The notes under the pieces: model-generated
The model's input: the letters and a program-made list of their open reading frames with translations, nothing else
The model's database searches: none
What the model was told of the DNA's origin: nothing
Made by a program: the position numbers and the translations under genes
Assembly: GCA_049322915.1 (NCBI GenBank)
Contig: JBMOPW010000026.1
Coordinates: forward strand, 32,001 to 96,000
DNA from: Candidatus Zhuqueibacterota bacterium
GTDB lineage: Bacteria; Zhuqueibacterota; Zhuqueibacteria; Thermofontimicrobiales; Thermofontimicrobiaceae
Length of the DNA stretch: 64,000 nt
Direction: 5' to 3'
Shown here: one piece after another, positions 11,314 to 47,041 of the stretch
How the letters are laid out: every line of letters starts with the position of its first letter
How positions within the stretch are numbered: position 1 is the first letter of the stretch

Positions 11314-11314
11314 T

Positions 11315-14135: not shown

Positions 14136-14175
14136 TCCTCGAAGATTTCGGTTTCGTTTAACAGTCGTTTCGAAA

Positions 14176-31512: not shown

Positions 31513-31753
31513 AACATACCTCCTGAAAGAAAAAATGAATGTTGAATGAACTGATAATAACCTGAAGGCGCGGGATCAAACGGGTGTATTGGTTCCTGGT
31601 GAATGCGCTGGACCATGAAATGTCTAAAACCGATCAGTCGACTTTAAACATAACAAAAGATTTTAAAATGTCAAGTATTTTTTTTCAGGGAGCGCGATTG
31701 CGTCAGCCGATTTTCCGGTCGGAATCCTGCCAGCGCATGATGCAAATATTTTA

Positions 31754-32140
31754 GTCACTTTTCAGCCTCAGAGTCTCAACGGCGCAAAGAAAAAGAAATT
31801 GTCAAAATGAACGATTCTGAAAAGCTGAATTTGGTTTTAAAAATGAAATTGAATTTCACAGAATAAGAATGAGCCGGCGCTAAAAAGAGGCTGAAGCCCA
31901 ATAATCAACGTTGAATTTTTGTTCCCCGACTTAAAAGTCAGGGCTATTCAAGGTGTCTGACTTTTAACTTTTTCAATGAATTGCCGTGTCATTTATGACG
32001 TGGAAACGATATCATCCCCAACGTATCAAAGCCTTTTAAGGCTTTTTAGAGTCGACCCGGGATTGAAAATGAAATTGACATCTTCTTGTAACTTCGTGAC
32101 CTAGGGACTTTGAGGCAAGAATACAAGCCTGAATAGCTAC
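31754..32140. mobile_element. GTAAC-end family element A with nested palindromic inner element
   Basis: Ends gtcacttttcagcc / gcctgaatagctac; colinear and highly similar to 50363-50811. Confidence 0.8.
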
Positions 32141-32144
32141 ATAT

Positions 32145-32183
32145 TTTAACAGCAATGTAATATAAAATTAATTTAGTTGTAAT
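32145..32183 (+). promoter_or_regulatory. Pho-box-like 11-bp periodic array upstream of the nonulosonate cluster
   Basis: TTTAAC (32145), TGTAAT (32156), ATTAAT (32167), TGTAAT (32178). The -10 element is less clear than at the other arrays. Confidence 0.55.
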
Positions 32184-32224
32184 CTATTTTTTATTTTTTA
32201 TAGGCTACAGTGGTGAATTGGATG

Positions 32225-32364
32225 GTAACCGTTCACAGGTTCATTGTTCAAGGTTAATGCTAACGTCCAATTGATGACGGACTCTTTGAGCAGAAAAATG
32301 TTTCGAGCAACTTTATCCAAAACCCCAACAGGGAACGCTGAACCCGGAACCTGTGAGCGACTAA
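32225..32364. mobile_element. GTAAC-end family element (type C)
   Basis: Ends gtaaccgttcacagg / cctgtgagcgactaa; sub-terminal 7-bp periodic GTTC/GAAC units as at 6346-6450. Confidence 0.6.
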
Positions 32365-32402
32365 ATTGGATGAATACCATGAAATTATTGATGTGTAGTT
32401 CA

Positions 32403-33392
32403 ATGAAAAAGAAAAAGATACTTTTCATCTGTGGCAGTTTGAATCAAACTACCATCATGTATAAAATCTATCAGCATTTAAGACATTATGATTGCCACTT
32501 CACCCCGTTTTACAGCGATGGGTATTTGAATATTTTAGCCCGAAACGGATTCCTTGACTTCACCATTTTGGGCGGACAGGCCCGAATCAATACGTTGAAA
32601 TTTCTCCACGAGAACCGATTGCCTCTCGATGATGGGGGCATGGGCCAAAATTATGATTTAGTGGTCACCGGCTCCGACCTGTTCATTCCAAAAAATATCA
32701 TCGGAAAGAAAATTGTCCTCGTTCAGGAAGGCATGACCGACCCTGAAAACTTCAAATATTATCTGGTGAAGAATCTCCATCTGCCGCGCTATCTGGCCAA
32801 CACATCTATGACCGGATTGTCCGATCAATACCAGACTTTCTGTGTAGCGTCTGAGGGATTTAAGGAACTGTTCATTCAGAAGGGCGTCAGGCCGGACAAA
32901 ATCGCCGTCACCGGCATCCCGAATTTTGATAATGTCAAAGAGCATCTTCAGAATGGTTTTCAGCACAGGAATTACACGCTGGCGGTGACGTCGCATCTGC
33001 GCGAGACCTTCAAATATGAGAACCGAATAAAATTTATCGAAAATGTCGTTGACATAGCCCGGGGCAAACAGGTCATTTTCAAATTACATCCCGGGGAAAA
33101 TGTGGAACGAGCGTCCCGGGAGATCAACAAATATGCGCCGGGCAGTCTGATTTTCACGCAGGGAAACACTAATGAGATGGTCGCCAACTGCGACGTATTT
33201 GTGACGCGCTATTCCTCGGTGCTGCTGGTCGCTCTGGCGCTCAATAAACAGATCTATGCGGATGTGGATTTTGACCTGCTGAAAAAATTAACGCCCATTC
33301 AGAACGGGGGAAAGTCGGCGCGGAAAATTGCCGATATATGTGAGTATCATCTTTACCCTACAACGTCATTTAGCAAGTTTATGGCAATATAA
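32403..33392 (+). CDS. GT-B-fold protein (CDP-glycerol/capsule transferase or epimerase-like); candidate nonulosonate transferase
   Basis: KKILFICGSLNQTT start; LVQEG, VTGIPNFD, FKLHPGE and TRYSSV motifs typical of GT-B CMP/CDP-donor transferases. The longer ORF start at 32244 lies inside a repeat. Confidence 0.65.
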   Translation: MKKKKILFICGSLNQTTIMYKIYQHLRHYDCHFTPFYSDGYLNILARNGFLDFTILGGQARINTLKFLHENRLPLDDGGMGQNYDLVVTGSDLFIPKNIIGKKIVLVQEGMTDPENFKYYLVKNLHLPRYLANTSMTGLSDQYQTFCVASEGFKELFIQKGVRPDKIAVTGIPNFDNVKEHLQNGFQHRNYTLAVTSHLRETFKYENRIKFIENVVDIARGKQVIFKLHPGENVERASREINKYAPGSLIFTQGNTNEMVANCDVFVTRYSSVLLVALALNKQIYADVDFDLLKKLTPIQNGGKSARKIADICEYHLYPTTSFSKFMAI

Positions 33393-33502
33393 TGTATGTA
33401 TTATTATTAGCAAATCCCATATATTGGGTTAATAATGCTATGTGACGTAGTAGGGTTAATTCATTGATTCGAATGAATCATTATAGACAAGAGAGCGAGT
33501 GA

Positions 33503-34525
33503 GTGAAAAGTGAACAGGATATGTCTTTTCTGATTGTGGGACTCGGTTCCATCGGGAAAAGGCATCTGCGAAATTTGCATAGTTTGGGCGTGAAAGATAT
33601 TACTGTTGTCAGCAAGGAGATTTTTCTACAGCCTGGGGAAGAATTGCCCGAGTTTCAGACAGCGCCAAATTTATCCAAAGCGCTGGAGAGAAGGTATACC
33701 GCTGCCATCATTGCATCTCCGACAGTGAATCACCTGGAGGGAGCCTTGCAGACGGCCATGGCCGGATGCCATTTGTTCATTGAAAAACCGATATCGCATT
33801 CCATGGATGGAATTCGGACATTGACGCAAATCGTGAACCAGCGCAACCTCATTGTTCAGGTCGGCTTTCAATTTCGATTTCATCCAGCTATGTTGCAAAT
33901 AAAAAAGTGGATCGATGAAGGCGTCCTCGGGAAAATCGTTTCCGCGCATTCGCATTGGGGCGAATACCTGCCCGGCTGGCATCCCTGGGAGGACTATCGG
34001 GCCGGTTACAGTGCGCGCAGCGACATGGGCGGGGGCGTCGTGCTGACGCTGTGCCATCCTTTCGACTACCTGCGTTGGCTGTTTGGCGAGGTGAAATTCA
34101 TTTATGCCGTCGTGTCGCATTCTTCCGAACTGGAAATTGACACCGAAGATACGGCCATGTCCACGCTGAAATTCGAGTCCGGCGTTGTCGGGACCGTGTA
34201 TCTGGATTACATCGAGCGACCACCCCGGCATGATCTGGTCATCATCGGCCAAAAGGGGAAAATTACCTGGTACAATGAAACGTCGTCGGCCACCCTGTTT
34301 TCCGAGGATAAACAAGAGCCGGAGATATTTCTCCCGGCCGAGGGATTTACCCGAAACAGCATGTTCGTCGATCAGTTGGCGCATTTCATTTCGAGCATAA
34401 AAAATAACCGTACGCCGGACTGCACGCTGAGGGATGGTGTTCGCGTTCTGGAAATTGCTCTGGCCGTGAAGCAATCTTCGGACCGTTGTACCGAAGTCAA
34501 TATCACGAATAATTCCTTTATTTAG
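33503..34525 (+). CDS. Gfo/Idh/MocA family oxidoreductase
   Basis: GLGSIGKRH, EKP, VGFQFRFHP and GGGVVLTLCHPFDY. Confidence 0.92.
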   Translation: MKSEQDMSFLIVGLGSIGKRHLRNLHSLGVKDITVVSKEIFLQPGEELPEFQTAPNLSKALERRYTAAIIASPTVNHLEGALQTAMAGCHLFIEKPISHSMDGIRTLTQIVNQRNLIVQVGFQFRFHPAMLQIKKWIDEGVLGKIVSAHSHWGEYLPGWHPWEDYRAGYSARSDMGGGVVLTLCHPFDYLRWLFGEVKFIYAVVSHSSELEIDTEDTAMSTLKFESGVVGTVYLDYIERPPRHDLVIIGQKGKITWYNETSSATLFSEDKQEPEIFLPAEGFTRNSMFVDQLAHFISSIKNNRTPDCTLRDGVRVLEIALAVKQSSDRCTEVNITNNSFI

Positions 34526-34614
34526 ATATGAATTAAACGGAAATTCCATGTGGGTATTTATACCAAATGTGGCAGTTTCCTCAAATCATGAATTAAATCA
34601 AAGGAGGTCGTTCT

Positions 34615-35031
34615 ATGAAGTATGGGACTCACGATATAGGCAAAATTCTGGGACTCCTGATGCTGTCCACCAGCCTGGTAACGATGCTTGAGAGCATTCT
34701 GGGAATTCTATTCGGAGTGAACCGAATTCTGGATTTGGGCTTTATTCTGACCGGCATTGTGGGAGTAGGACTTTATAACCACAAGAATTGGGCGCGGTTA
34801 TTCCTGCTTGGACTCTCGTATCTTGGAATAGCCGTCTCGGTGGTGATTGGAATTATCTATCCCATAAAGCCAGACATCGCAACTATTGAGACTAATTTTC
34901 GAGGACAGCTCATTGCCAATCCAGCCATGTGGAAGGTCTACATCGTTCTTGCGTTAGCGATTGTCTGCTTCGGATTGATTGCCTACTTCCTGCGGACAGA
35001 AAAAGCAAGGAGCGAGTTCAGCGTCGCTTAA
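34615..35031 (+). CDS. Small four-TM membrane protein
   Basis: AGGAGG RBS; four hydrophobic segments with a KNWAR loop. Confidence 0.75.
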   Translation: MKYGTHDIGKILGLLMLSTSLVTMLESILGILFGVNRILDLGFILTGIVGVGLYNHKNWARLFLLGLSYLGIAVSVVIGIIYPIKPDIATIETNFRGQLIANPAMWKVYIVLALAIVCFGLIAYFLRTEKARSEFSVA

Positions 35032-35239
35032 TACTGTGCGGTGCAGGCCGGGCAGCATTTTTTGAATATGGCGGAGTTTTGATGGGTGTTCCGGACCGTT
35101 TAATTGATTCGAAGCAGAGGGATTGTCGATTATGAAAGACAACCTCAGCGCCGGCGTTTTTGAGTCTGACGTGCGGGTGTCATTCAAGAATCGGATAATC
35201 CAGGGACCATGAATATTAAATTTATGAAGTGAGGTATTA

Positions 35240-36028
35240 TTGATGGAAAATAAAAAAAATATTATTGCGATCATTCCGGCCCGGGGCGGCTCCAAATCGA
35301 TCCCGCGAAAGAATATCAAGTACCTGGGCGGATGTCCGCTCATTTCGTACAGCATCGCTGCCGGTTTGAGTTCAGATTACATTGACCGGGTCATTGTTTC
35401 GACCGATGATGAAGAGATCGCAGAGATTGCGCTGTACTGGGGCGCGGAAGTGCCGTTCATTCGCCCGGCTGAACTGGCAGAGGATCATGTTCTGGATCTG
35501 CCGGTGTTCGACCATGCCATCCACTGGCTTGAAACCAACGAGAAGTATCGCCCCGATATTGTCGTTCAATTGCGGCCAACAACGCCATTCCGCCCGATCA
35601 ATTGCGTGGATGAAGCCATTGAGCTATTGATGCAAAGCAATGCCGACTCCGTGCGGGGAGTCACGCCGTCCGGCCAGAATCCCTACAAGATGTGGCATGT
35701 CAAAGATAACCGAATGGTGCCGATCATGGCGACAGAATTCAAAGAGCCCTACAATATGCCGCGACAGAAACTTCCGGCGACCTTCTGGCAGACGGGCCAT
35801 GTTGAGGCAATTCGGTATGAAACGATTATGCACAAGCACAGTCTGACCGGCGATTCGATTGCGCCGCTCATCATTGCCCCGGAGTATTCCATCGATCTGG
35901 ATAATGAGTTCCAGTGGGAGTTCGCCGAGTATGTGCTGGAGCATATGGAACTGCAAATTGTTCATCCCAATGAACTGTTTCTTGATCAGCGAAAACTGGG
36001 GTCGTCCATTGCCTCTCCTGTGTGGTGA
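35240..36028 (+). CDS. neuA: Acylneuraminate (CMP-nonulosonate) cytidylyltransferase
   Basis: IIPARGGSKSIPRKN, VSTDD, RPAELA, QLRPTTPFR and RQKLP. Confidence 0.92.
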   Translation: MMENKKNIIAIIPARGGSKSIPRKNIKYLGGCPLISYSIAAGLSSDYIDRVIVSTDDEEIAEIALYWGAEVPFIRPAELAEDHVLDLPVFDHAIHWLETNEKYRPDIVVQLRPTTPFRPINCVDEAIELLMQSNADSVRGVTPSGQNPYKMWHVKDNRMVPIMATEFKEPYNMPRQKLPATFWQTGHVEAIRYETIMHKHSLTGDSIAPLIIAPEYSIDLDNEFQWEFAEYVLEHMELQIVHPNELFLDQRKLGSSIASPVW

Positions 36029-36148
36029 AATGGAGATAGGTGGAGATTGCGCTGCAACTTTCGTTTAAGTCACTTTCATCGTGAAGTCCGGCTATTGCCT
36101 GAGTGAGGCGTCGAGACTCACTATGAAATGGCGATGCCTGAGCCTGTG

Positions 36149-37270
36149 TCACGCGGCTTCTTTGGCGATGTACTGCGCGCGTGACCGGCGCAACGACACC
36201 TTCCTCATTGCGCCTTTCGAACGAAATTTCACAATAAATCGGGTGATCAGATAGAGGATGCCGCCAACTGCGAGATAGGAATAGAACGTGATGAAGCGCC
36301 ATCCGGCGGTGACCATGCCAATGGTTCGAGGCGGCAGGAAGGCCAGGAAAATCAGGTAGAACGACGCTTCCGCTCCCCCTGTGGCGCCCGGCGTTGGGAT
36401 GAAAATAGCGATTGTGTTGACCATCCATTGCAGCACAAAAAACAGGATGGGTTGGACCGGCATCCCCAGGCTGGCCACCAGCGCCGAGATCACCGAATAT
36501 CTGCAGATCCACTGAATCCCTGTCAAAATTGTCGTGATGAAAAATGTGAACTTCCCCCGCCGGATGATCACGCTGTACGCCGCTTTTAAATCATGCCCAA
36601 ATTTGAACACGCCCCGACGCACTCTTGAAAAGAATGATAGCTCGCCTTCCGGAGTATGCCGGCTGAACCACGCTGGCTTGATTTTTTTCATGATGAAATA
36701 CAACAGGAAGAGCACAATCACGAGGCTGACCACGATGATGCCCACCCAGACCATCGCCCCCTGAAGTTTATGATACGCTTTGGAAAATGTGGGGAATTTC
36801 CAGGCCGCCGTCCAGATGATGGCAAGGGGCAGCGCAACGCCTAAAAACGCGATGTCCTCGATTGTGCCAATGGATGTGATTGTGAACGCCGCGCCGGAGG
36901 ATACCCGTTTTTGCATGAGCAATCCAATTTTCAAGGGAGCGCCGCCGATGGCTGAGGGACTTATCGCTGCGCTCAATTCGCTGTAAAAAATGATTTTCAG
37001 GCTCTGGAAGAACGATAATTTCCGTTTGAAAAAGTGCGCCCATAGCTTCAATCGAAACACATTGGTGAACCAGGGAATAATGATCAACAGGATAGCGAGC
37101 AGAAAATAGTGGAATGAAAAATTGATCACGGAAACCAGAGCTGTTTTATCCTTTGTGAAAATGGTAAGTCCAAGATTGATGAAGATACCAAGGGGAATGA
37201 TGAAAATGAATTTCTTCACAAGTTTGGAGAGATCGAAATTTGATGGTTGTGAATTGATTGACTTCTTCAA
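36149..37270 (-). CDS. UPF0104 / lysylphosphatidylglycerol-synthase TM-domain (flippase-like) membrane protein
   Basis: Multiple TM helices; SPSAIGG, PTPGATGGAE and WRFITFY family motifs; TTG start with GGAGA RBS. Confidence 0.88.
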   Translation of the reverse strand: MKKSINSQPSNFDLSKLVKKFIFIIPLGIFINLGLTIFTKDKTALVSVINFSFHYFLLAILLIIIPWFTNVFRLKLWAHFFKRKLSFFQSLKIIFYSELSAAISPSAIGGAPLKIGLLMQKRVSSGAAFTITSIGTIEDIAFLGVALPLAIIWTAAWKFPTFSKAYHKLQGAMVWVGIIVVSLVIVLFLLYFIMKKIKPAWFSRHTPEGELSFFSRVRRGVFKFGHDLKAAYSVIIRRGKFTFFITTILTGIQWICRYSVISALVASLGMPVQPILFFVLQWMVNTIAIFIPTPGATGGAEASFYLIFLAFLPPRTIGMVTAGWRFITFYSYLAVGGILYLITRFIVKFRSKGAMRKVSLRRSRAQYIAKEAA

Positions 37271-37488
37271 TTATAGTTGTCTCCGAAAATGATGATTCCG
37301 CTGTAATGAACCAGGATGGGTAGCTGGCTCTGATCCGCAGCGAATGTCTGAGTCCGATCTGCGTTGGGGACGCCCGCGGCGCCCGCGATGAATGAACGAG
37401 GCGCTGCGCCAGCGATTATTTTTGCCTGACTGCCAGTTCCCATGTGGCAGCAGGTGTTCGCCCTGTCTGCAATTGGTAAAACATCTTC

Positions 37489-37543
37489 AAAATAGATAAT
37501 TCATTTTACAGAACTGTTACATTGCGATTACAGATTATTGAAG
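37489..37543 (-). promoter_or_regulatory. Pho-box-like promoter for the flippase-like gene
   Basis: Minus strand CTTCAA, TGTAAT, TGTAAC, TGTAAA at 11-bp period (plus starts 37538, 37527, 37516, 37505), then 10 bp, then TATTTT. Confidence 0.65.
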
Positions 37544-37605
37544 TCTCAGCGCCGGCTGAAAATCGTTCTGAAATTCACACCGTTGTTATGAAAAGTACGC
37601 TGAAA

Positions 37606-37649
37606 TATAACCCGGGTGTAACAAAACCGTAACGTGCTTCCATTAAATT
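37606..37649 (+). promoter_or_regulatory. Pho-box-like promoter for the SDR-HAD-neuB operon
   Basis: TATAAC (37606), TGTAAC (37617), CGTAAC (37628), then 10 bp, then TAAATT (37644). Confidence 0.65.
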
Positions 37650-37693
37650 TCTGACTAATATTTTAATTTTAACATTTTTTAGAAGCGAAGTGC

Positions 37694-38506
37694 ATGAAGA
37701 CAACTGATTTATTTATCATTCAAGGCCGAGTGGCCATCGTCACGGGAGCGCTGGGACTCATTGGGAAGCATCACTGTTCTGCATTAGCCGAAGCCGGCGC
37801 CCAAGTGGTGGCGTGCGATGTGGATGAACAGAGGTGCCAGCGTTATGCTGAGTTACTGCCAACCGATTCCATCGGCGTTGGCGTGAATGTGACCGACCCT
37901 GAGTCGATCGCCCGAATGAAAGAGATCGTGCTGAATCGCTTCGGTCACGTGGATGTGCTGGTGAATAACGCGGCGATCAATGATATGTTCGAGACGCCGG
38001 CGCTCGCAGCCGAGAAATCGAAATTTGAAAATTATCCTCTGGACATGTGGCAAAAGATGCTGAATGTGAACGTGACCGGCATTTTCCTTTGTGCGCAGCA
38101 GATTGGCGCGGAGATGGCGAAACAGGGACATGGCAGTATCATCAATATAGCATCCACCTATGGCATCGTGGCGCCGGATCAGTCCATTTATAAAGACCGG
38201 CAGGGAAAACAACTGTTTTTCAAATCGCCGGCCTACCCGACGACAAAGGGGGCGGTGATTGCCTTCACCAAATTTTTGGCCGCCTATTGGGGAACCGCTG
38301 GTGTGCGGGTGAATACGCTGTCGCCCGGCGGGGTGGAAAACGGACAGGATGATTTTTTTGTGACGAATTATTCAACCAGGACGCCGCTGGGCAGAATGGC
38401 AAAACCGACAGATTACAAAGGCGCGCTGCTGTTCCTTGCCAGCGATGCCTCAAGTTATATGACAGGCGCAAATTTGGTAGTAGATGGAGGATGGACGGCA
38501 TGGTAG
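37694..38506 (+). CDS. SDR family oxidoreductase (PtmA-like, nonulosonate-cluster type)
   Basis: TGALGLIG, NNAA, ASTYG, YPTTK catalytic motif and NLVVDGGWTAW. Confidence 0.92.
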   Translation: MKTTDLFIIQGRVAIVTGALGLIGKHHCSALAEAGAQVVACDVDEQRCQRYAELLPTDSIGVGVNVTDPESIARMKEIVLNRFGHVDVLVNNAAINDMFETPALAAEKSKFENYPLDMWQKMLNVNVTGIFLCAQQIGAEMAKQGHGSIINIASTYGIVAPDQSIYKDRQGKQLFFKSPAYPTTKGAVIAFTKFLAAYWGTAGVRVNTLSPGGVENGQDDFFVTNYSTRTPLGRMAKPTDYKGALLFLASDASSYMTGANLVVDGGWTAW

Positions 38507-39054
38507 CACCGGGAGACAATCGAAGAAAAGCGCGGGGAATAAAATTAGTCATCACTGATTGCGACGGCGTTTTGACGGATAACGGCGTGTATTATTCCGA
38601 ACGCGGCGAGGAAATGAAGCGCTTTTCCATCCGCGACGGGATGGGCGTGGAACGGCTGCGCACCGTGGTCAATGTGGAAGTCGCCATCATTTCCGGTGAA
38701 AAGTCGGGATCGCTGATTAAACGGGCGGAGAAACTCAACATCACCGAACTGCATCTTGGTGTGCGGGACAAAGTGAAAGTGGTTGATGACCTCGTCCAGA
38801 GAATGAATATCGCATTGGAAAATGTAGCATACATCGGCGACGACACCAACGATGTGGAAGTGATGCAGCACGTTGGGTTGTCGGCCTGCCCCACCGATGC
38901 AACGTCATTTGCCAAAGCCGTGGCGGACTATATCTGCCGCAGCAAAGGCGGCGATGGTGCGTTCCGCGATTTTGCCGAATACATCATTGCAGCAAAGAAA
39001 TCTTTTAATAAAGCCCTAATTGGAAATGAAGATGGTGAACTGACCGTTTCATAG
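38500..39054 (+). CDS. KdsC-like HAD phosphatase (KDO-8-P / nonulosonate-9-P phosphatase)
   Basis: DCDGVLTD, RDGMG, YIGDDTND and GGDGAFRDF; start overlaps the SDR stop. Confidence 0.92.
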   Translation: MVAPGDNRRKARGIKLVITDCDGVLTDNGVYYSERGEEMKRFSIRDGMGVERLRTVVNVEVAIISGEKSGSLIKRAEKLNITELHLGVRDKVKVVDDLVQRMNIALENVAYIGDDTNDVEVMQHVGLSACPTDATSFAKAVADYICRSKGGDGAFRDFAEYIIAAKKSFNKALIGNEDGELTVS

Positions 39055-39086
39055 TTTAAAACCTTGAAAGGGAGGTTATCGGAACA

Positions 39087-39998
39087 ATGAGAAAACAGAT
39101 TAAGGTTGGTAAGCATACTATTGGTGAAGGTGAACCAACATTTGTGATTGCTGAAATAGGCATAAATCACAATGGCTCTCTTGAAATTGCAAAAAAAATG
39201 ATTGAAGGAGCTAAGTTCGCTGGATGCGATGCAGTCAAATTTCAGAAACGGACGCCTGAGTTGTGCGTGCCGTACGATCAATGGAATATCGAGCGGGACA
39301 CCCCGTGGGGCCGCATGACCTATATCGATTATCGCCATCGCATCGAATTTGACGCTGAACAGTTTGCTGAAATAGACCGGTTCTGTAAAGAGAAGGACAT
39401 CATCTGGTTCGCATCGTGCTGGGATGAGGAATCCGTCGATGTGATTGAACAATTCGACCCACTGCTCTATAAAGCGTCATCTGCGTCGTTGACGGATCAC
39501 GGGCTTTTGAAAAAAATGAAAAGCACCGGCAAACCACTCATCGTTTCCACGGGCATGTCGCAGATGGAAGAAATTCAGGAAGCCGTGACAATGCTGGGGA
39601 ATGAAAATTTAGCCATCGCGCACTCCACATCGGCCTATCCCTGCAAACCGGAGGAACTGAATTTGAAAATGATCAGGACGCTCATGGATATTTACCCGGT
39701 CCCGGTTGGCTATTCCGGCCACGAAGTCGGGCTGGCGCCGACATGGACGGCGGTGACGCTGGGCGCAACGTTTGTGGAACGGCACATTACGCTGGACAGA
39801 GCCATGTGGGGAACGGACCAGGCCGCATCCGTGGAAATTATCGGTATGTCACGTCTGGTGCACAATATCCGCGTCATTGAATTGGCTCTCGGCGATGGCA
39901 TCAAACGCGTTTATCCCAGCGAAGTTCAGGTGCGACAGAAGCTCCGTCGCAATCAAAATAATCATGACCAGGTGGATGTGGTTTCAATGGTCAATTGA
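39087..39998 (+). CDS. neuB: N-acetylneuraminate/nonulosonate(-9-phosphate) synthase, short form without C-terminal SAF domain
   Basis: IAEIGINHNG, VKFQKR, STGM, HSTSAYP, GYSGHE and ERHITLDR. Confidence 0.92.
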   Translation: MRKQIKVGKHTIGEGEPTFVIAEIGINHNGSLEIAKKMIEGAKFAGCDAVKFQKRTPELCVPYDQWNIERDTPWGRMTYIDYRHRIEFDAEQFAEIDRFCKEKDIIWFASCWDEESVDVIEQFDPLLYKASSASLTDHGLLKKMKSTGKPLIVSTGMSQMEEIQEAVTMLGNENLAIAHSTSAYPCKPEELNLKMIRTLMDIYPVPVGYSGHEVGLAPTWTAVTLGATFVERHITLDRAMWGTDQAASVEIIGMSRLVHNIRVIELALGDGIKRVYPSEVQVRQKLRRNQNNHDQVDVVSMVN

Positions 39999-40136
39999 AC
40001 GAGCCGGGTATGGGCGTGGACGATTGATTGCTTGCAGTCCAGACAAGGGTTCGCGTATCGTTGTTCTCATTAAAAGTTGATGCACATATTAAAACGCCGA
40101 GTTTGAAACCGAACAATGCAAAGGATGCTATAGTCA

Positions 40137-41069
40137 ATGAAAATTGCTCACCTGTCCGATCTGCATATTTGCCAGAAATCGCGACCCGGGAATATTAAAA
40201 ATACTGAACTTCTCCTTCAATACGCTCTGGCCCAGGGAACAGATCATTTTGCCATCACCGGGGATCTGATTCACCTGGCCAATGATGATGATTTTTACGA
40301 ACTACGAACCCTGTTTAACAAATACGATTTGATGGATCCGGCCAGACTGACCCTTGTCATCGGAAATCACGATATTTATGGCGGCGTTCATCTGGCGGAA
40401 GATGTGGTTAAATTCCCGCAGACTTGTCTCAATGTCGATTACAACAAGAAGGTTGAAAGTTTTAATAAATACTTTTTTGAAGCGTTTGAAAATTGCTATG
40501 TCTATTCAACAGAAATGGGATATCCCTTTGTCAAGACGATTGATAATGTCGCGCTGATCGGCATTAATTCTACCACGCATTATTCCATTTTGAAAAATCC
40601 ATTCGCTTCAAAAGGGTTTGTGAATAAATATCAGATCGCCGGCATCAGGCATATCATGGGTCGGTTGCATCAGCAGAACAAAGTGAAAATTGTGATGATG
40701 CATCATCATTTCAAACGGCAAAATCTGAATGATTCATTGTTTCGGAATTCCATGTTGAAGAACGTCGAAGACCTGGCGAATAATCTCTGGCGCAAGAACA
40801 GATTGCTGAAAGTTCTGCGGCGCTACAAGGTGGACTTGATTCTCCATGGCCATGAACACTATTCCGGCGAGTACGTGCACCGCAAGTTGCACATGTTGAA
40901 CGCAGGCGGAAGCATTGACAAAAACGAACCGGGCGAATTGAAGATCAATTTCATCGATGTTGATGGCAATACCTACCGTACCGAAATACGGACACTTCGC
41001 ATTCACGAGATGATGACTTTAAAAAATGTGGCCAGGGAACATTCGGAGCAAGGTGTACTCGTCAGTTGA
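40137..41069 (+). CDS. Calcineurin-like metallophosphoesterase
   Basis: SDLH, TGDL, GNHD, HHH and HGHEH motifs. Confidence 0.9.
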   Translation: MKIAHLSDLHICQKSRPGNIKNTELLLQYALAQGTDHFAITGDLIHLANDDDFYELRTLFNKYDLMDPARLTLVIGNHDIYGGVHLAEDVVKFPQTCLNVDYNKKVESFNKYFFEAFENCYVYSTEMGYPFVKTIDNVALIGINSTTHYSILKNPFASKGFVNKYQIAGIRHIMGRLHQQNKVKIVMMHHHFKRQNLNDSLFRNSMLKNVEDLANNLWRKNRLLKVLRRYKVDLILHGHEHYSGEYVHRKLHMLNAGGSIDKNEPGELKINFIDVDGNTYRTEIRTLRIHEMMTLKNVAREHSEQGVLVS

Positions 41070-41216
41070 AATAAATTTACAGGCCCCCCCCTTTAAATGA
41101 GCCACTTGAAGAGGCAGAAGCTGCCATGCAATATCCTGATTGTTTGTGATGATGGCAGATGCTTCAACAGCGGCAGTGATGAACCGATCATTTTGATTCC
41201 ACTATTTTCTCTTTAG

Positions 41217-41377
41217 CCTGCATTATTCATAGTATTTTTAAAGGAGGCTGGCTAAATTGAATGGTGCTCTTTTTAGAATAACCGTACAAAAACTGAGTTT
41301 CAAAATAGCTTAGCTTTTAGCTAATTGAAAATCTGAATGTTGACTCAAATTCTGAGCAAGTTCATGAATAATTCAGG
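41217..41377. mobile_element. 161-bp MITE (type B), copy 2, with TTAG target-site duplication
   Basis: TTAG|cctgcattattcat...atgaataattcagg|TTAG; reverse-complement match to 10055-10215. Confidence 0.85.
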
Positions 41378-41416
41378 TTAGAGCATTTACAGTTCAATGC
41401 GTCTCTTTCTCAATTC

Positions 41417-41457
41417 AAAAAACCATTCCCGTGTTGACGCGGGGATGGTTTTTTTTT
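41417..41457 (+). terminator. Rho-independent terminator
   Basis: aaaaaaccattcccgtg-ttga-cgcggggatggttttttttt hairpin with T tract. Confidence 0.8.
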
Positions 41458-41528
41458 GTCAGAGTGAAACATCTGTCGGATTGGACCAGGACCGTCGCCC
41501 GAACCCTTTCAAAAGGAACGCTTCAAAA

Positions 41529-41583
41529 CTTAAAGCGAATGTCATATCGATGAAATAGGGCTGTTACATTACCTGAGTATAAT
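41529..41583 (+). promoter_or_regulatory. Pho-box-like promoter for the small ORF at 41636
   Basis: CTTAAA (41529), TGTCAT (41540), TGAAAT (41551), TGTTAC (41562), then 10 bp, then TATAAT (41578). Confidence 0.72.
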
Positions 41584-41635
41584 GATGTCAAAACCATGCA
41601 GTCCATGTTTCGCATTATAAATGGGAGAAGCAAAA

Positions 41636-41845
41636 ATGAAGAAAAGCGAAAAGATTTTGAGCATGAAACAGAACTCAACCAATGATGGTTCATTGTGGTA
41701 TTTATACGCAGCGCTCGAACCTGCGAAATGGTTGAAATGCTATACCGACCTCATTGAACTGAATGAGCGACGGAAACAGGTTGACGGTAAAAAAAATTCC
41801 ACCAACCCACAACACTTCAGAGAGCCGCTTTTCGAATTAAAGTAA
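41636..41845 (+). CDS. Small hypothetical protein (69 aa)
   Basis: GGGAG RBS and its own Pho-box-like promoter; no recognisable family. Confidence 0.5.
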   Translation: MKKSEKILSMKQNSTNDGSLWYLYAALEPAKWLKCYTDLIELNERRKQVDGKKNSTNPQHFREPLFELK

Positions 41846-41933
41846 TCTTCTGGATGCATCTATCAAAGGATACTTTTCCAACAATTTGTAAAAACAGAGG
41901 CGCAATCAACTTGTGATGTGGCATTAACATTTT

Positions 41934-41953
41934 TGTGGACAACTTGTGGATAA
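41934..41953. promoter_or_regulatory. Tandem DnaA boxes
   Basis: TGTGGACAA (1 mismatch) and TGTGGATAA (perfect reverse complement of TTATCCACA), 2 bp apart, followed by AT-rich DNA. Confidence 0.5.
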
Positions 41954-42177
41954 GTTGGTAAAAGATAAGTTTTTCTTTTGTCATGGCTTTGTAATACAAA
42001 TGCAATTATTTAATCTTTTAAAAAATAGTCAATTATAAAACAGGGGGTTCCTGAGAACCTGTGGCGATCAAACAGCAGCGATAATCCTGGGTGTGAATTA
42101 GTGGGTTTATCCCATGAAAAAATCGAGTCATAGGACGGTCAGGTGCATTGTGGAACATGCAGGGAATCGATATTCGG

Positions 42178-43401
42178 TCACTGCACAAGGCTGAAGACGA
42201 AGCGGGAATTGAGTCGGTTGTAGTGGATTTTTATTTTGCCAAATTGAATTTCCACGTAACGACGATCCACAAACCGGAGTTCCCCGGCGAACTCATCGAT
42301 GAGTTGCAGCGCCTGGGGAGTGCCATTGTACGATTCGCCCAGTTCACTGATCATCTCCATCAATTTGGATTTGTAGCGCTCGCCGCGGGCCAGAAATTTC
42401 AGAACAGCTTCAGGAGATAGCCGGTCGATCTCAATCGATTCGCCGAACCCGCTCAGATTGAGCGCCATCCCGTTGATTTTTTGTTCAATATCATTCAACT
42501 TGGGGAATGCCAGGATTGGCTTGCCGAGGTAAATGGCCTCGCCAATCACCTGATTGCCGGCCGTGCAAATCAATCCGCGGGATGTAGCCAGCGACGAAAT
42601 GAATTTTTCCGGATGAATATGGATGAGCTTAATATGTCGGCATCGTGTTGGCTTTGTCTTCAGAGACGACCAGTCTGAAAAAACTTCGAAACGGATATGG
42701 CTCAATTGCTGAATGACCGGCAAAAGCTTCTGCAGATAAAACGGCTCTTTCAAATACACGGTAATGTGATTCCGCTCCTCGGGAGTGGTGTTTTGAACAG
42801 CGTCGGAAAGAAATGGCCCGACAAAAACCGCGCGACTGTCGCGAAGCTTCGGGAAATGAAAGAACGAGCTGGTCACAATTCGATCCGGTTTCGCTGACAG
42901 GATTCTGATAAACAGCTTGAACAAACTGAGTTTCACCCGGTTGCGGATGGATGTCATTGGGGGAATTTCCGATTCGAGCAACATGTGCTGATGATCGATC
43001 AGGATGACCGGAATTTTCTGGACATTGGCAATTTTCAATAAATAGGGCTCGAAGTCGCTGATGATGAAATCCGGATTTTGAAAGAGAACCTCCTGGTAAA
43101 TTTGCCGGTATTTTTTCCCAAGCCCGAAGATGAGTCCCCAGAAGAGCGAAAAGTTTTTGACGGAAATTTTCCACAGATTGATCCCGCCTTTTTTCCCGGT
43201 ATACAATCGGAATGTGGGGATTTGGATGGACGGAATGCTGTTATAGTTCAACAGCGGAAGGGCATCACCGCCGCCAAATACAAGCACTTCATGTCCGGCA
43301 TTTTTTAATTGTTTGATTATTTGAATGCTGCGGGAGGTATGGCCCCGGCCTTCGCCCTGAATTCCGTAGACAATTTTCTTTGGCGTGTCAGTAGTTAGCA
43401 T
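42178..43401 (-). CDS. Glycosyltransferase, MJ1255/VC2487-like (GT-B)
   Basis: YGIQGEGRGHTSRS, ISDFEP, IDHQH, AGNQVIGEAIYLGKP and EQKIN. Confidence 0.88.
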   Translation of the reverse strand: MLTTDTPKKIVYGIQGEGRGHTSRSIQIIKQLKNAGHEVLVFGGGDALPLLNYNSIPSIQIPTFRLYTGKKGGINLWKISVKNFSLFWGLIFGLGKKYRQIYQEVLFQNPDFIISDFEPYLLKIANVQKIPVILIDHQHMLLESEIPPMTSIRNRVKLSLFKLFIRILSAKPDRIVTSSFFHFPKLRDSRAVFVGPFLSDAVQNTTPEERNHITVYLKEPFYLQKLLPVIQQLSHIRFEVFSDWSSLKTKPTRCRHIKLIHIHPEKFISSLATSRGLICTAGNQVIGEAIYLGKPILAFPKLNDIEQKINGMALNLSGFGESIEIDRLSPEAVLKFLARGERYKSKLMEMISELGESYNGTPQALQLIDEFAGELRFVDRRYVEIQFGKIKIHYNRLNSRFVFSLVQ

Positions 43402-43552
43402 ATCAGAACCTGTTTTCCAGTGGTGTAAAGTATGTCAGTATCGAATACGTGTATTGGCCTCGCCGACTGGCACCGAATCATGGCCACGGATGCCGCCGCA
43501 TACAGTCGCCGGCGCCCTGACGCCTGGTTGGCCGGCGTCAGCATTACATGAG

Positions 43553-43744
43553 TTAGAGCAGGTGAAACCAGAAAAAATTATCAGCCGCCAGGCTGCTGCT
43601 GCCAATGTCAGGGCGCAGGTCATTGCCGGGCTCGTTGCCTTCGGCTGACCTCTCCAGCTTGCGTTTTGCCGATAACAGCAACCGGCGCTGAAACTGATTT
43701 ATTTTCAGGGATTGTTTCGATAAATCCGATGATGGTCTGTTCAT
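43553..43744 (-). CDS. Small hypothetical protein (63 aa)
   Basis: ATG at 43744 with AGAGGA RBS, immediately downstream of a Pho-box-like promoter; basic N-terminus and aromatic C-terminal tip. Confidence 0.4.
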   Translation of the reverse strand: MNRPSSDLSKQSLKINQFQRRLLLSAKRKLERSAEGNEPGNDLRPDIGSSSLAADNFFWFHLL

Positions 43745-43807
43745 GGATTTTCCTCTTTTTCTTTCACAGTCAAACACAAATTGGATCGATGAATGAAGCG
43801 TTGATAC

Positions 43808-43862
43808 ATGGTAAAAAAACAAGGTTAACTCTATGTTGACTCCATTTTACAATCGTATGAAC
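43808..43862 (-). promoter_or_regulatory. Pho-box-like promoter toward the small ORF and glycosyltransferase
   Basis: Minus strand GTTCAT, TGTAAA, GTCAAC, GTTAAC at 11-bp period (plus starts 43857, 43846, 43835, 43824), then 10 bp, then TACCAT. Confidence 0.6.
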
Positions 43863-43871
43863 TAAAATTGA

Positions 43872-43926
43872 ATTCACGGAAACTTAAAGATTTTGTAACC
43901 TGGAATTCATGCATTTCTGGCATATT
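43872..43926 (+). promoter_or_regulatory. Pho-box-like promoter for plsC-like / GNAT / phoA genes
   Basis: ATTCAC (43872), CTTAAA (43883), TGTAAC (43894), ATTCAT (43905), then 10 bp, then CATATT (43921). Confidence 0.6.
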
Positions 43927-43934
43927 GATGCTTC

Positions 43935-44771
43935 ATGAGGAATAAAAAAGATAGCATTAGGAAAAGGGTTGTGCAGACTTCATCGAATCAGATTAACAGA
44001 ATCCAGCGTTTGGTCATAAACGTCTTGCTGCTTTTTGGGGGGCGTCTCATAAAAGTCGAGAATGCGTCCCGATTCACATCGCCCGAAGACCCGGTCATCT
44101 ATGCCTTCAATCATAACAATGCGTTTGAGACGGTATTAATCCCGGCCTACCTGATACGTGCCCGCCGTTGGAAAAAGGTGAGTTTCATCATCGATTGGAT
44201 GTACGGAAAAATTCCGCTCGTGGGTTGGTTCTGCCGTCAGACCGAGCCGGTCTATGTGTATAACAAACGCGCTAGGTTTAAACTGTACGAGCGCTTTCGG
44301 CTTCAGCATCGCAGCGAGGATGTATTCGTGAAAATCATAGAAAAACTGAACCAACAGCGGAGCATTGGAATTTTCCCTGAAGGAAAAAGAAACAAGAATC
44401 CGTACATCTTGCGACGGGGATTCAACGGCGTGGGGTATATCGCCCTGATGGCCAAAGCGCCGGTGATCCCGGTGGGAATAGAATTTCAGTCGAGTCGCAA
44501 GAAGGGCAAAATGCCTGGCGTCGGTCGATTTATCTTGCGCGTTGGTGAACCGAGGATTTTCGCGCAGGCAATTCACCAGGTCGAGCAAATTGAACGGGAT
44601 GATTCAATCGATCCGCACGCGAAAAAGAAACTCATCCATTTTCATGCAAGTGAAGTGACCTATCACATCATGATGGACATCAGTAGACTGTCGCGAAAAG
44701 AATATCCATATCTCGCTCCATCATTGGCGGAAAATTTTGAAAAACATATCTTTTCAGAAATTATGAGGTGA
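43935..44771 (+). CDS. PlsC-family lysophospholipid/lyso-lipid acyltransferase
   Basis: FNHNNAFE (variant of NHxxxxD), FPEGKRN and PVIPVGI. Confidence 0.88.
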   Translation: MRNKKDSIRKRVVQTSSNQINRIQRLVINVLLLFGGRLIKVENASRFTSPEDPVIYAFNHNNAFETVLIPAYLIRARRWKKVSFIIDWMYGKIPLVGWFCRQTEPVYVYNKRARFKLYERFRLQHRSEDVFVKIIEKLNQQRSIGIFPEGKRNKNPYILRRGFNGVGYIALMAKAPVIPVGIEFQSSRKKGKMPGVGRFILRVGEPRIFAQAIHQVEQIERDDSIDPHAKKKLIHFHASEVTYHIMMDISRLSRKEYPYLAPSLAENFEKHIFSEIMR

Positions 44772-44774
44772 GCC

Positions 44775-45434
44775 ATGGCAAAAATTACAGTTGTCAAGAT
44801 TCTCAATTCGGAGACCCGAAAGAAGGCGTTTGAGGTCATCGAACAGGTGTATCTGCAGGAGAAGAACTGGATTTATTCCGTTCAGAATGAAATCCCGGAA
44901 GACGTTGCCACCAACGAACGGTATTCCTGGTTTCTCGCGTCGGTCAATGGAAAGCCGGCCGGCGTGCTGCGTCTTTATTACGATCCGCCACTGGAATTTC
45001 CGGCGGACTTCAAGGTGACGTTGCACAGGGATGTGGATCTGAAGGCTTTTGCTGCGACGTGCCGATTCGTTGAAATTGGCCGGTTCATGATTCTCAGGGA
45101 ATATCGGAAAAAAATATTGGTCGCACTCCGACTCATGCGCATTGCAATTCGGGAAGTGGTGCAGCGCGACTACACTCATTTCATCACCGATGTTTTTGAA
45201 AATGAACCGAACTCGCCCCTGCAATTTCACACCAGGGTGCTGGGATTTGAAGTCATTGGCACCCATCTCCATGGCGAATTGAATTGCAGTCTGACAAGGA
45301 TTATTCTGACGCTGGATATTTTAAAAGCGTATCAGCGGCTGCGGGAGCGAAACAACAGAATTTACTGGAGTCTCACCCGGGGTATTCGTGGCGCGCTGAA
45401 CAAGAAACTGGCTGCTCAGGTGAAACCTGTATGA
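44775..45434 (+). CDS. GNAT-fold N-acyltransferase (FeeM/OlsB/LuxI-like, acyl-ACP dependent)
   Basis: PAGVLRL and FVEIGRFMILREYR motifs; LGF; 3 bp after the plsC-like gene. Confidence 0.75.
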   Translation: MAKITVVKILNSETRKKAFEVIEQVYLQEKNWIYSVQNEIPEDVATNERYSWFLASVNGKPAGVLRLYYDPPLEFPADFKVTLHRDVDLKAFAATCRFVEIGRFMILREYRKKILVALRLMRIAIREVVQRDYTHFITDVFENEPNSPLQFHTRVLGFEVIGTHLHGELNCSLTRIILTLDILKAYQRLRERNNRIYWSLTRGIRGALNKKLAAQVKPV

Positions 45435-45539
45435 TCGTTGATGCTATTTCAAAAGAAGATTTTATAAAAATTGGAACTCATTATGGTTACAATGGTATGA
45501 TGCCATATATTTTATCAATTCAACTTTAGGTGAAATTAA

Positions 45540-46925
45540 ATGAAAAATAAACTTCAGGAATTGTTGTATGCAATTGTTTTGGGAATGATGCTGAATTTCA
45601 CGGCGGCCGGTCTGGCGAATGGAGCCGGAATTCCCAAAAACATCATCATTATGATCGGCGATGGCTGCGGCTACAATCATGTAGTCGCCACGAATTACTA
45701 TCAAACTGGCGAAGCCGGGGCGCAGGTTTATGAGAAATTTCCTGTCACGCTTGGTATGAGCACCTATTCGGCCAGCGGCGATGGATATGATCCGACAAAG
45801 GCATGGACTGATTTTAGTTATGTGACGCATCGACCCACTGATTCGGCGGCTGCGGCAACGGCAATGTCCACCGGTGTGAAGACGAACAATGGAGCGATTG
45901 GCGTCGATGAAAAAAAACATCGGCTGGAACATTTGGTCGAGCATCTGGAGAAATTCGGAAAATCAAGCGGGGTCGTCACCACCGTGATGTTTTCGCACGC
46001 GACCCCGGCCGGTTTCATTGCGCATCAGGAACGCCGCGATCAATACTCTGACATCGCCCGCGAGATGATTCTGGATAGTCCGCTGGAAGTGATCATGGGC
46101 TGTGGCCATCCGCATTACGATGACAATGGCCGTCTGCTGGAACAGGCCAAATTCGACTACACCTACGTCGGCGGCGATGACGTCTGGCAGGCGCTGAAGC
46201 AGGGCAGAGTGGAGTCCGATTCAGATACCGATGGTGTGAAAGACACGTGGCATCTCATCGAGACGCGGCAGGAATTTCTTGCGCTCGGATCCGGGGACAC
46301 GCCAAAGCGCGTGATCGGAGTACCCCGGGTGAGGATGACCCTGCAGCACGAACGCGCCGGCAATAAAAAGACAGAGCCGTTTGTCGATCCCCTGGTTCAG
46401 GACGTTCCCACTTTACCGGAGATGACGGCGGCAGCGCTGAATATTCTGGACAATGACGCTGATGGATTTTTTCTGCTCATCGAAGGAGGCGCAATCGATT
46501 GGGCTGGCCATGAAAATAACTCCGGCCGCATGATCGAAGAGACCATCGATTTCAACAAAGCGGTCGATGCGGTCGTCGCCTGGATTAACGAATCCAGCTC
46601 GTGGGATCAAACCCTGCTCGTAGTCACCGCTGATCATGAAACCGGTTACCTCACCGGCCCGGGATCTGGCGAACAGGACAAAATGGGCGATAGCGCGGTG
46701 AAACCGATCTGGAATCCGATAGTGAACAACGGCCAGGGCAAGTTGCCGGGACTGGAATGGCATATCACCAAACATACGAACTCACTGGTGCCATTCTATT
46801 CGAAAGGAGCCGGGTGCGAATTATTTTTGAAGTATGCTGATGAAACTGATGCAGTCTGCGGCGCCTACCTGAATAACATTGAAATTGCTCAGGCCATTTT
46901 CGCTCTTTTTCCAACGGCTCAATAA
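45540..46925 (+). CDS. phoA: Alkaline phosphatase
   Basis: Signal peptide; IGDG, TDSAAAATA (catalytic Ser), HATPA, EGGAIDWAGHEN and TADHET. Confidence 0.93.
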   Translation: MKNKLQELLYAIVLGMMLNFTAAGLANGAGIPKNIIIMIGDGCGYNHVVATNYYQTGEAGAQVYEKFPVTLGMSTYSASGDGYDPTKAWTDFSYVTHRPTDSAAAATAMSTGVKTNNGAIGVDEKKHRLEHLVEHLEKFGKSSGVVTTVMFSHATPAGFIAHQERRDQYSDIAREMILDSPLEVIMGCGHPHYDDNGRLLEQAKFDYTYVGGDDVWQALKQGRVESDSDTDGVKDTWHLIETRQEFLALGSGDTPKRVIGVPRVRMTLQHERAGNKKTEPFVDPLVQDVPTLPEMTAAALNILDNDADGFFLLIEGGAIDWAGHENNSGRMIEETIDFNKAVDAVVAWINESSSWDQTLLVVTADHETGYLTGPGSGEQDKMGDSAVKPIWNPIVNNGQGKLPGLEWHITKHTNSLVPFYSKGAGCELFLKYADETDAVCGAYLNNIEIAQAIFALFPTAQ

Positions 46926-47041
46926 GATGAAATTTTAAATTCACTGGAACATTCGCTGTTTGACTTCGTAATTCGAGCATTATCAAAACGAACAACTGTG
47001 ATTCTGTTATGCGAGGTAGACAGAGGATGAAAGGAGATCCC

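Follow-up and report, generated by a model that had tools for sequence, protein, structure and literature searches.

What is a set of sialic-acid-type sugar genes doing beside an alkaline phosphatase gene in a bacterium of the Candidatus Zhuqueibacterota? The question is raised by an island of about 17 kb (~32.1–49.3 kb) within the 64-kb stretch of DNA analysed here (the window; G000:C26:32001-96000, where G000 is this genome, an assembly of 6.25 Mb in 45 contigs that is 96% complete; G001 denotes a congeneric genome, G019 an order-level relative, and L-numbers the loci compared). We suggest, with a probability of roughly 45%, that the island is a phosphate (Pho)-controlled block whose core would make a cytidine monophosphate (CMP)-activated ulosonic acid of the ketodeoxynononic acid (KDN) type, that a new protein of the GT-B glycosyltransferase fold would put this sugar on a membrane lipid, and that a UPF0104 membrane protein would move the product, giving a phosphorus-free anionic lipid. 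A first-pass annotation of the same DNA had read all of the island's genes as steps of one phosphate-starvation pathway to such a lipid.

The core of the island is seen again and again in other genomes. More than 6,400 proteins, most of them unnamed, are related to the GT-B protein at E ≤ 0.001, and the family is about 60% identical across records of Ignavibacteria, Bacteroidota, Nitrospirota and Thermodesulfobacteriota. The window proteins were compared by tblastn with 80 related loci, each with up to 10 kb of flank; many of the loci that gave no match are short contigs. Linked to the GT-B gene were the short-chain dehydrogenase/reductase (SDR) in 55 loci, NeuB in 54, the HAD phosphatase in 44, the metallophosphoesterase in 17, the GFO oxidoreductase in four, the window-lineage cytidylyltransferase in three and UPF0104 in two, and in none of the 80 were PlsC, GNAT, the MJ1255-type glycosyltransferase, PhoA or the TonB receptor found. 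The neu-type genes and the GT-B gene, which the first-pass annotation had grouped, form one conserved unit by this neighbourhood check, and the core (i.e. GT-B, CMP-transferase, SDR, KdsC-like phosphatase and NeuB) is, judged by gene order, a widespread operon. Clustering of open reading frames (ORFs) shows that its common form comprises GT-B, a KdsB-like cytidylyltransferase, a split transketolase, a class-III aminotransferase, SDR, HAD and NeuB, and ends with a fatty-acid-hydroxylase-family gene in 38 of the 80 loci. The window holds a rarer form, shared with L068 and L073, in which the GFO oxidoreductase and UPF0104 stand in place of the transketolase and aminotransferase. No polymerase or exporter was found in the conserved operon set by ORF clustering of the 80 loci. 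In L073 (12852-17184) a PhyH-type dioxygenase gene lies between the cytidylyltransferase and UPF0104 genes, the latter being followed by an O-methyltransferase gene and a gene for a GT22 (Alg9-like) membrane glycosyltransferase; in L128 (7359-8672; G019:C49) the cytidylyltransferase and KdsC-like phosphatase occur as a natural fusion of 437 residues.

The link to phosphate begins with short direct repeats. Units of the TGTAAY/TTAAC type at 11-bp spacing precede five transcription units of the island, four clearly and one weakly (Table 1). The claim that each unit starts behind the same array was right for these five, whereas no separate array precedes the metallophosphoesterase and PhoA genes, which are probably transcribed together with their upstream neighbours, and the array in front of PlsC scores weakly (12.3) and stops only ~20 bp short of the start codon. 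A scan for sigma-70 and terminator consensus sequences gave nothing usable for unit boundaries. Across the 64-kb window, a simple score (three T(G/T)TAA(C/T) units at 11-bp spacing) gave strong matches only at 32145-32167(+), 37532/37543(-), 37606(+), 41540+41979(+) and 43851(-), with two borderline matches elsewhere. An independent matrix, AT-rich and built from 84 units that all come from the related loci of other genomes, placed eight of its ten best matches in the window at island promoters, each facing its unit (32143+, 32154+, 32165+, 37534-, 37545-, 37604+, 43853- and 43870+), the remaining two being 1239- and 35268-. Matrix scores of at least 12 occur eight times in the island at period 11 and zero to two times at periods 8-10 and 12-14; in the 48.8 kb outside the island there is one. 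Over the whole genome the simple score gave 42 matches at period 11 and 17–30 at other periods. Two points count against this part of the argument: the simple score was derived from the island's own arrays, and the independent matrix is not period-specific genome-wide (429 matches at period 11, 386–587 elsewhere). Because the AT-rich matrix has no genome-wide period preference, the genome-wide scan is by itself no evidence, and our case is built on enrichment within the island, on the period controls and on conservation.

Conservation is what gives the arrays a probable meaning. Three of the 42 genome-wide matches to the simple score fall in a single 8-kb stretch of contig C7. One immediately precedes the gene for a PAP2 phosphatase, another that for a TonB-dependent receptor, and the third (C7:416581) the phoU-pstS-pstC-pstA operon of the same genome. 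Two contigs of the congener G001 carry the island in syntenic form with 68–76% identity in coding DNA, and arrays are present at all matching promoters (e.g. scores of 13.2 for the 37604 array, 19.8 for 43853 and 12.5 for 43870). PhoB/PhoP sites of E. coli, Bacillus and cyanobacteria are direct repeats with 11-bp periodicity. Since the same array stands before phoU-pstS-pstC-pstA and recurs at the corresponding promoters of the congener, the 11-bp array is most likely a Pho box, albeit a putative one. In other phyla, the 250 bp before the GT-B gene hold a period-11 array at 37 of the 77 related loci examined (the 80 minus three with too little upstream DNA), in 33 cases in the gene's orientation; other periods gave 1–4 of 77 at this position, other intergenic gaps of the same loci gave 7 of 203, and an earlier run on 54 loci had found 32 with an upstream array. 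The metallophosphoesterase gene is divergent upstream of GT-B in L010, L028, L041 and L048, with each gene faced by its own array. Five carrier genomes were inspected at pstS: two have like arrays 120–150 bp before the gene, two more have them ~1 kb upstream on the same strand, and one is without an array in the right orientation. In L068, from a Lewinellaceae record, the operon abuts pstS, the pst permease/ATPase genes (pstC-A, pstB), and genes for a glycerophosphodiesterase (GDPD) and a secreted phytase-like protein. On account of these upstream arrays, of those near pstS and of the abutting pst genes in L068, phosphate control of the GT-B operon looks old and widespread. The arrays thus behave like Pho boxes at pst, in the congener and in other phyla, as predicted by the earlier claim of phosphate-starvation regulation. 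In our literature search no paper connected a NeuB pathway with the Pho regulon or with a lipid head group, and the putative Pho control of this operon family is new here.

Further details of these loci may be recorded. The cluster on C7 is a second Pho cluster of the genome (L001, G000:C7:404000-421000, 4807-16767), and runs from an array and the PAP2 phosphatase gene, through an array, the TonB receptor gene and a gene for a 1025-residue protein secreted by the type IX system, to an array and PhoU followed by pstS, pstC and pstA; this PhoU is fused to a low-molecular-weight phosphotyrosine phosphatase domain. Within the island, the weak array before the 69-residue ORF is kept in G001 together with the DNA of the ORF, for which reason 41538-41845 may be a small Pho-regulated gene.

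The sugar that the core would make can be narrowed by profile scores. The NeuB domain exceeds its Pfam cut-off (PF03102, 247.4 bits, cut-off 22.1), and the protein falls below the equivalogs for N-acetylneuraminic acid synthase (243.5, cut-off 399.65) and pseudaminic acid synthase (202.5, cut-off 340.25); Pfam finds the NeuB domain and no C-terminal SAF domain in its 303 residues. The HAD phosphatase belongs to TIGR01670 (YrbI family; 152.7, cut-off 106.95) and falls just short of the KDN-9-phosphate phosphatase equivalog NF058599 (169.1, cut-off 180). The cytidylyltransferase exceeds the cut-off of PF02348 (73.5 against 22.6), stays under that of the PseF equivalog (157.3 against 205.7) and matches solved NeuA structures. 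NeuB, the KdsC-family phosphatase and the NeuA-like enzyme are together predicted to form a route from a sugar phosphate to a CMP-activated 3-deoxy-ulosonic acid, and the extra oxidoreductases point to a modified sugar.

The enzyme that would use this sugar is the GT-B protein, which we predict to be a new CMP-ulosonate transferase. Its structural model (pLDDT 85.5) matches GT-B folds with Z of 14–18. In 23 family members tested against profiles all matches lie below the cut-offs, the strongest being to TIGR04396 (22 members, best E 4.4e-10) and to the BFO_1060 nonulosonate-transferase family (21 members, 2.1e-7), and the weaker to Glyphos_transf (17 members, 4.2e-6) and diglucosyl-diacylglycerol synthase (10 members, 1.6e-4); the window protein itself scores 24.1 against 200 for BFO_1060 and 20.7 against 125 for TIGR04396. 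The protein atlas returned only unnamed clusters for it. BFO_1060-family proteins of Tannerella carry H-P and D/E-D/E-G motifs, and knockouts lose a terminal pseudaminic or legionaminic acid, according to the accessible part of PMC5420450. The GT-B family has H229-P230 and Q108-E109-G110 as invariant residues, so that its triplet begins with Q and not with D/E.

A lipid as the acceptor is suggested by the company that the GT-B domain keeps. Of 29 longer GT-B relatives, 21 are fusions with PF03706 (UPF0104/LPG_synthase_TM), the other eight carrying ABC-2 membrane domains (two), a cytidylyltransferase (two), a fatty-acid hydroxylase, an aminotransferase, PF18939 or no further domain (one each). 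In one relative, P0125, the GT-B domain occupies residues 351-663 (48% identity) behind an N-terminal membrane half. This layout, which is that of MprF, suggests a lipid-directed transferase and fits it much better than a soluble sugar-nucleotide enzyme; we take the fusions to point to a lipid acceptor. The free-standing UPF0104 protein of the window (PF03706, 98.8 bits; TIGR00374, 79.1 with a cut-off of 43.2; 80.8 bits to the glucosaminyl-phosphatidylglycerol flippase-like profile) is encoded inside the operon in L068 and L073 as well. The sole NCBIfam match of the hydroxylase in the common operon form is the ornithine-lipid hydroxylase OlsE (NF052566; 122.9 bits, cut-off 475); the FA_hydroxylase family has no match in this genome. 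The fusions, the UPF0104 gene of the operon, the OlsE-like hydroxylase, the lack of exporter or polymerase genes in the operon and the linkage of the metallophosphoesterase together lend support to a lipid destination.

These arguments have to be set against two other uses of the same genes. The nearest folds to the GT-B model are UDP-N-acetylglucosamine 2-epimerases including NeuC (Z 17–18.4), ahead of TagF (16) and a polysialyltransferase (14.6), and 22 of the 23 family members match Epimerase_2 (best E 2.7e-6). Nonulosonate operons usually contain a GT-B-fold enzyme of the NeuC/LegG/PseG type, and the H-R-R-E and H-x-N-P stretches of E. coli WecB align with conserved stretches of the family. 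The GT-B protein might then free or epimerise a hexose from a sugar nucleotide, with the operon making only the CMP-sugar and the transferase encoded elsewhere. We regard this as quite unlikely: the Epimerase_2 scores are all under the Pfam cut-off (25.1 against 30.6 for the window protein), hhalign to WecB pairs two motifs of the C-domain only, with a probability of 1.6%, a KdsC-type phosphatase implies a sugar-phosphate substrate and leaves no need for a nucleoside-diphosphate-sugar hydrolase, and the fusion to UPF0104 in the 21 representatives would be hard to explain for a soluble sugar-nucleotide enzyme. The more serious challenge concerns the acceptor. The island may be Pho-regulated while its ulosonic acid goes to a glycan, capping or replacing phosphate groups on a lipopolysaccharide (LPS) core, a protein O-glycan or an exopolymer, as a Gram-negative counterpart of the switch from teichoic to teichuronic acid in Bacillus. 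Lipid A is made in every genome inspected: LpxC is present in all five carrier genomes tested and in this genome, which also has WaaA, and GT9 heptosyltransferase genes lie 2–6 kb upstream of the operon in nine of the 80 loci, so that the LPS core is a possible acceptor; an attempt to exclude it failed because every carrier genome tested has LpxC. TagF-like polymerases are, moreover, among the fold and sequence matches of the GT-B protein. The N-terminal half of P0125 has no BLASTP similarity to the window UPF0104 protein, and their kinship accordingly rests on a precomputed Pfam label. LPS and O-glycan routes, however, use MsbA or Wzx and not UPF0104, the conserved operon is without Wzx/Wzy, an ABC exporter or a second glycosyltransferase, and fusions to the MprF-type lipid-flippase domain far exceed those to ABC-2 membrane domains. 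The nearest characterised GT-B relatives transfer pseudaminic or legionaminic acid to protein O-glycan in the accessible part of PMC5420450, and in GpgF, the closest studied system, the available text of PMC12713373 gives flipping by UPF0104 itself as a prediction. We consider the glycan destination unlikely on balance. The proposal of a lipid destination is favoured by the fusions and by the OlsE-like gene, with LPS still a possible acceptor.

The remaining question is how much of the island belongs to the pathway, and here the original model, in which all genes act together and either an aminolipid (from PlsC-GNAT) or a glycolipid (from the metallophosphoesterase and MJ1255-type glycosyltransferase) receives the ulosonic acid to give a ganglioside-like lipid, finds itself in difficulty. 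All units carry the array; in G019 the PlsC-GNAT pair lies 3.5 kb from the GT-B, NeuB, cytidylyltransferase-HAD fusion and SDR genes; the hydroxylase of the common form resembles only OlsE; and the metallophosphoesterase gene is found with the operon in three distinct arrangements (an ORF cluster of 18 loci including the window). Yet PlsC, GNAT, the glycosyltransferase and PhoA were found in none of the 80 loci, so that the expected co-occurrence was seen in G019 and failed across the set. The glycosyltransferase is patchy (8 of 41 relatives), as is the window-type GNAT (6 of 41), and orthologues of both keep other neighbours, those of the glycosyltransferase pairing with a radical-SAM gene. 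Pho-regulon genes often cluster without a common pathway, for which L068 is an example. The single integrated pathway was not supported by this comparison and we judge it improbable, even more so than an epimerase role for the GT-B protein. PlsC-GNAT, the MJ1255-type glycosyltransferase, PhoA and the TonB receptor are, from their distribution, most likely parallel Pho-regulon modules and not steps of one pathway. Nor was an aminolipid supported as the general acceptor: the window-type GNAT is in none of five carrier genomes with the common operon form, and the canonical N-acyltransferase family PF13444 was found in one of four and not in the other three. Nothing spoke for a ceramide acceptor either: the Aminotran_1_2 gene seen close to the operon in six loci is aspartate-aminotransferase-like.

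The modules themselves can be described briefly. The metallophosphoesterase has a Metallophos domain (66.8 bits, Pfam) and only unnamed Ignavibacteriota/Chlorobiota clusters in the protein atlas; sequence searches of the PDB gave no match for it, for the MJ1255-type glycosyltransferase or for GNAT. At each of the five loci from relatives whose flanks are long enough (L119-L122, L124), PlsC lies directly upstream of GNAT; arrays precede PlsC in L120-L122, and the two are most likely an aminolipid synthase pair. A gene for a canonical Acetyltransf_5 (OlsB/GlsB-type) N-acyltransferase lies elsewhere in the genome (L131, G000:C12:94242-94547), and since this comes in addition to the FeeM-type GNAT, the organism may make two kinds of aminolipid. 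The glycosyltransferase exceeds the cut-off of PF13528 (157.6, cut-off 25) and stays under that of TIGR00661 (120.7, cut-off 195.9). In L113 (8820-11115) and L115 (1005-3294) its gene overlaps the radical-SAM gene as a conserved pair; in the window the partner is missing and a 63-residue ORF lies in its place. Two order-level relatives (L114, 14646-18944; L115, 5205-10127) have PhoA followed by a GT2 gene, a gene for a protein of 410–416 residues and a PMT_2/ArnT-like membrane glycosyltransferase gene, an arrangement that suggests a phosphate-starvation-linked set for modifying lipid A or a glycan.

Taking up again the preferred reading, a sequence of events can be proposed. At low phosphate the units predicted to be under PhoB control would be switched on. 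The NeuB-type synthase would condense phosphoenolpyruvate with a sugar phosphate, the KdsC-like phosphatase would take off the terminal phosphate, the GFO and SDR oxidoreductases would modify the sugar or its precursor, and the cytidylyltransferase would convert the product to the CMP-sugar. GT-B would then transfer the ulosonic acid at the inner membrane face and UPF0104 would flip the product, while the metallophosphoesterase would free phosphate from phospholipids or diesters and might provide diacylglycerol as the acceptor. More tentatively, such a lipid (a phosphate-sparing, ganglioside-like anionic lipid bearing a KDN/neuraminic-type sugar acid, made by an MprF-style synthase/flippase and switched by PhoB) could be widespread and replace phosphatidylglycerol and cardiolipin in Ignavibacteria, Bacteroidota, Nitrospirota, Acidobacteriota and others.

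The features of the island, called from Pfam and NCBIfam profile scans of the window ORFs, are collected in Table 1. All 12 genes named in the first-pass annotation were found where it had placed them, and no wzx, wzy, kps, LPS or flagellin family was matched by the scanned island ORFs in Pfam, also as it had claimed; it had missed the 138-residue membrane protein, two small ORFs and the TonB-dependent receptor 3' of PhoA, with which the PhoA unit probably ends. Short repeated elements at 31740-32140 and 41210-41300 flank and split the island, and occur also near 10136. These elements recur within the window and match many G001 contigs, and the G001 assembly breaks at the 41210-41300 element. 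The remainder of the window holds housekeeping genes (shikimate pathway, peptidases, pyrF and others).

Table 1. Genes and Pho-box-like arrays of the island, in window coordinates.
Feature	Position	Strand	Remark
Pho-box-like array, 4-5 units T(G/T)TAA(C/T)	32143..32197	+	upstream of GT-B operon; scores 21.7, 18.1, 17.9
GT-B-fold protein, unnamed family; predicted CMP-ulosonate transferase	32403-33392	+	
GFO/IDH/MocA oxidoreductase; predicted sugar or sugar-phosphate dehydrogenase	33503-34525	+	same position in L068, L073
Small hydrophobic membrane protein, 138 aa	34615-35031	+	
CMP-nonulosonate synthetase-like cytidylyltransferase (CTP_transf_3, NeuA-like)	35240-36028	+	
UPF0104/LPG_synthase_TM membrane protein; predicted lipid flippase	36149-37270	-	
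Pho-box-like array	37491..37545	-	facing UPF0104 gene; scores 18.5, 14.3, 10.7
Pho-box-like array	37604..37636	+	58 bp upstream of SDR-HAD-NeuB-metallophosphoesterase unit; score 12.0
Short-chain dehydrogenase/reductase (SDR)	37694-38506	+	
KdsC-family HAD phosphatase	38491-39054	+	nearest KDN-9-phosphate phosphatase
NeuB-family ulosonate (phosphate) synthase, 303 aa	39087-39998	+	without SAF domain
Calcineurin-like metallophosphoesterase; candidate PlcP-like phospholipase or phosphodiesterase	40137-41069	+	
Small ORF, 69 aa	41636-41845	+	weak array 41538-41570 precedes
Glyco_trans_1_3 (MJ1255/VC2487-like) GT-B glycosyltransferase	42178-43401	-	
Small ORF, 63 aa	43553-43744	-	between array and MJ1255-like glycosyltransferase gene
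Pho-box-like array	43821..43853	-	facing 63-aa ORF and MJ1255-like glycosyltransferase; score 16.1
Weaker array	43870..43913	+	facing PlsC-GNAT-PhoA; scores 12.3, 11.2
PlsC-type O-acyltransferase (OlsA/GlsA-like)	43935-44771	+	PF01553, 63.9 bits, cut-off 23
GNAT, FeeM N-acyl-amino-acid-synthase type (OlsB/GlsB-like role)	44775-45434	+	PF21926, 37.2 bits, cut-off 27
Alkaline phosphatase PhoA	45540-46925	+	PF00245, 200 bits
TonB-dependent receptor with CarboxypepD_reg domain	47009-49267	+	Pfam

Exchanging phospholipids for lipids free of phosphorus is a major way in which microbes cope with scarce phosphate, and to our knowledge the acidic substitutes described are sulfoquinovosyl and glucuronosyl diacylglycerols. 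If the proposal is true, a Pho-controlled lipid of sialic-acid type would add a new class of phospholipid substitute, a gene family of thousands of unnamed proteins would gain a physiological role, and the nonulosonic acids of free-living bacteria could serve membrane economy and not host mimicry. The conserved putative Pho box makes the idea testable in cultured Melioribacter, Ignavibacterium or Rosettibacter.

Several known systems resemble parts of the island. OlsB/OlsA and GlsB/GlsA are adjacent N-acyltransferase and PlsC-type O-acyltransferase pairs that are often Pho-induced, and the island too has an adjacent N-acyl-amino-acid synthase and PlsC; its GNAT, however, is a FeeM-type and no Acetyltransf_5-type protein, and the PlsC gene precedes that for GNAT. 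Jensen, Knudsen and Olson (1991, cited in PMC11762602) reportedly described an aminoglycosphingolipid of Chlorobium limicola. With a sugar that is said to be neuraminic acid, this would be a precedent from a related lineage for a sialic-acid-type head group on a membrane lipid, but no gene is assigned there, and no sphingolipid genes were seen beside the operon here. The KDN pathway of Bacteroides thetaiotaomicron, to which we take the synthase and the KDN-9-phosphate phosphatase of NF058599 (PDB: 3e81) to belong, likewise combines a NeuB-type synthase, a KdsC-family phosphatase and a cytidylyltransferase. It differs from the island in that the phosphatase here is under the equivalog cut-off (169 against 180), in the Pho context, and in the extra oxidoreductases (in the common form, the split transketolase and aminotransferase), which imply a modified sugar.

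The transferases Tanf_01245/TFUB4_00887 of Tannerella forsythia, whose family is among the best-scoring characterised ones, are TagB-like GT-B proteins that have an H-P motif and use CMP-nonulosonates; the resemblance is very slight (24 bits against 200), their sugar goes to a glycan bound to protein, and the accessible part of the account reports no flippase fusion (PMC5420450). The PlcP-Agt remodelling systems of SAR11, roseobacters, Agrobacterium and Pseudomonas are, as far as the available text of PMC4796936 goes, likewise Pho-box-marked clusters of a phosphoesterase and a lipid glycosyltransferase, and swap acidic phospholipids for a sugar-acid lipid, glucuronic-acid diacylglycerol. In the island, by contrast, a CMP-activated 3-deoxy-ulosonic acid would come from a dedicated NeuB pathway, the transferase belongs to an unnamed GT-B family and not to Agt, and the phosphoesterase is a PlcP candidate only. 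In MprF, in GpgSDF of Pseudomonas aeruginosa and in HexSDF of Clostridioides difficile, a cytoplasmic head-group synthase is combined with, or fused to, a UPF0104/LPG_synthase_TM domain that is the predicted flippase. These systems add cationic lysine or glucosamine to phosphatidylglycerol or a glycolipid, and serve mainly in peptide resistance according to the available sections of PMC12713373, whereas the product proposed here would be anionic and tied to phosphate.

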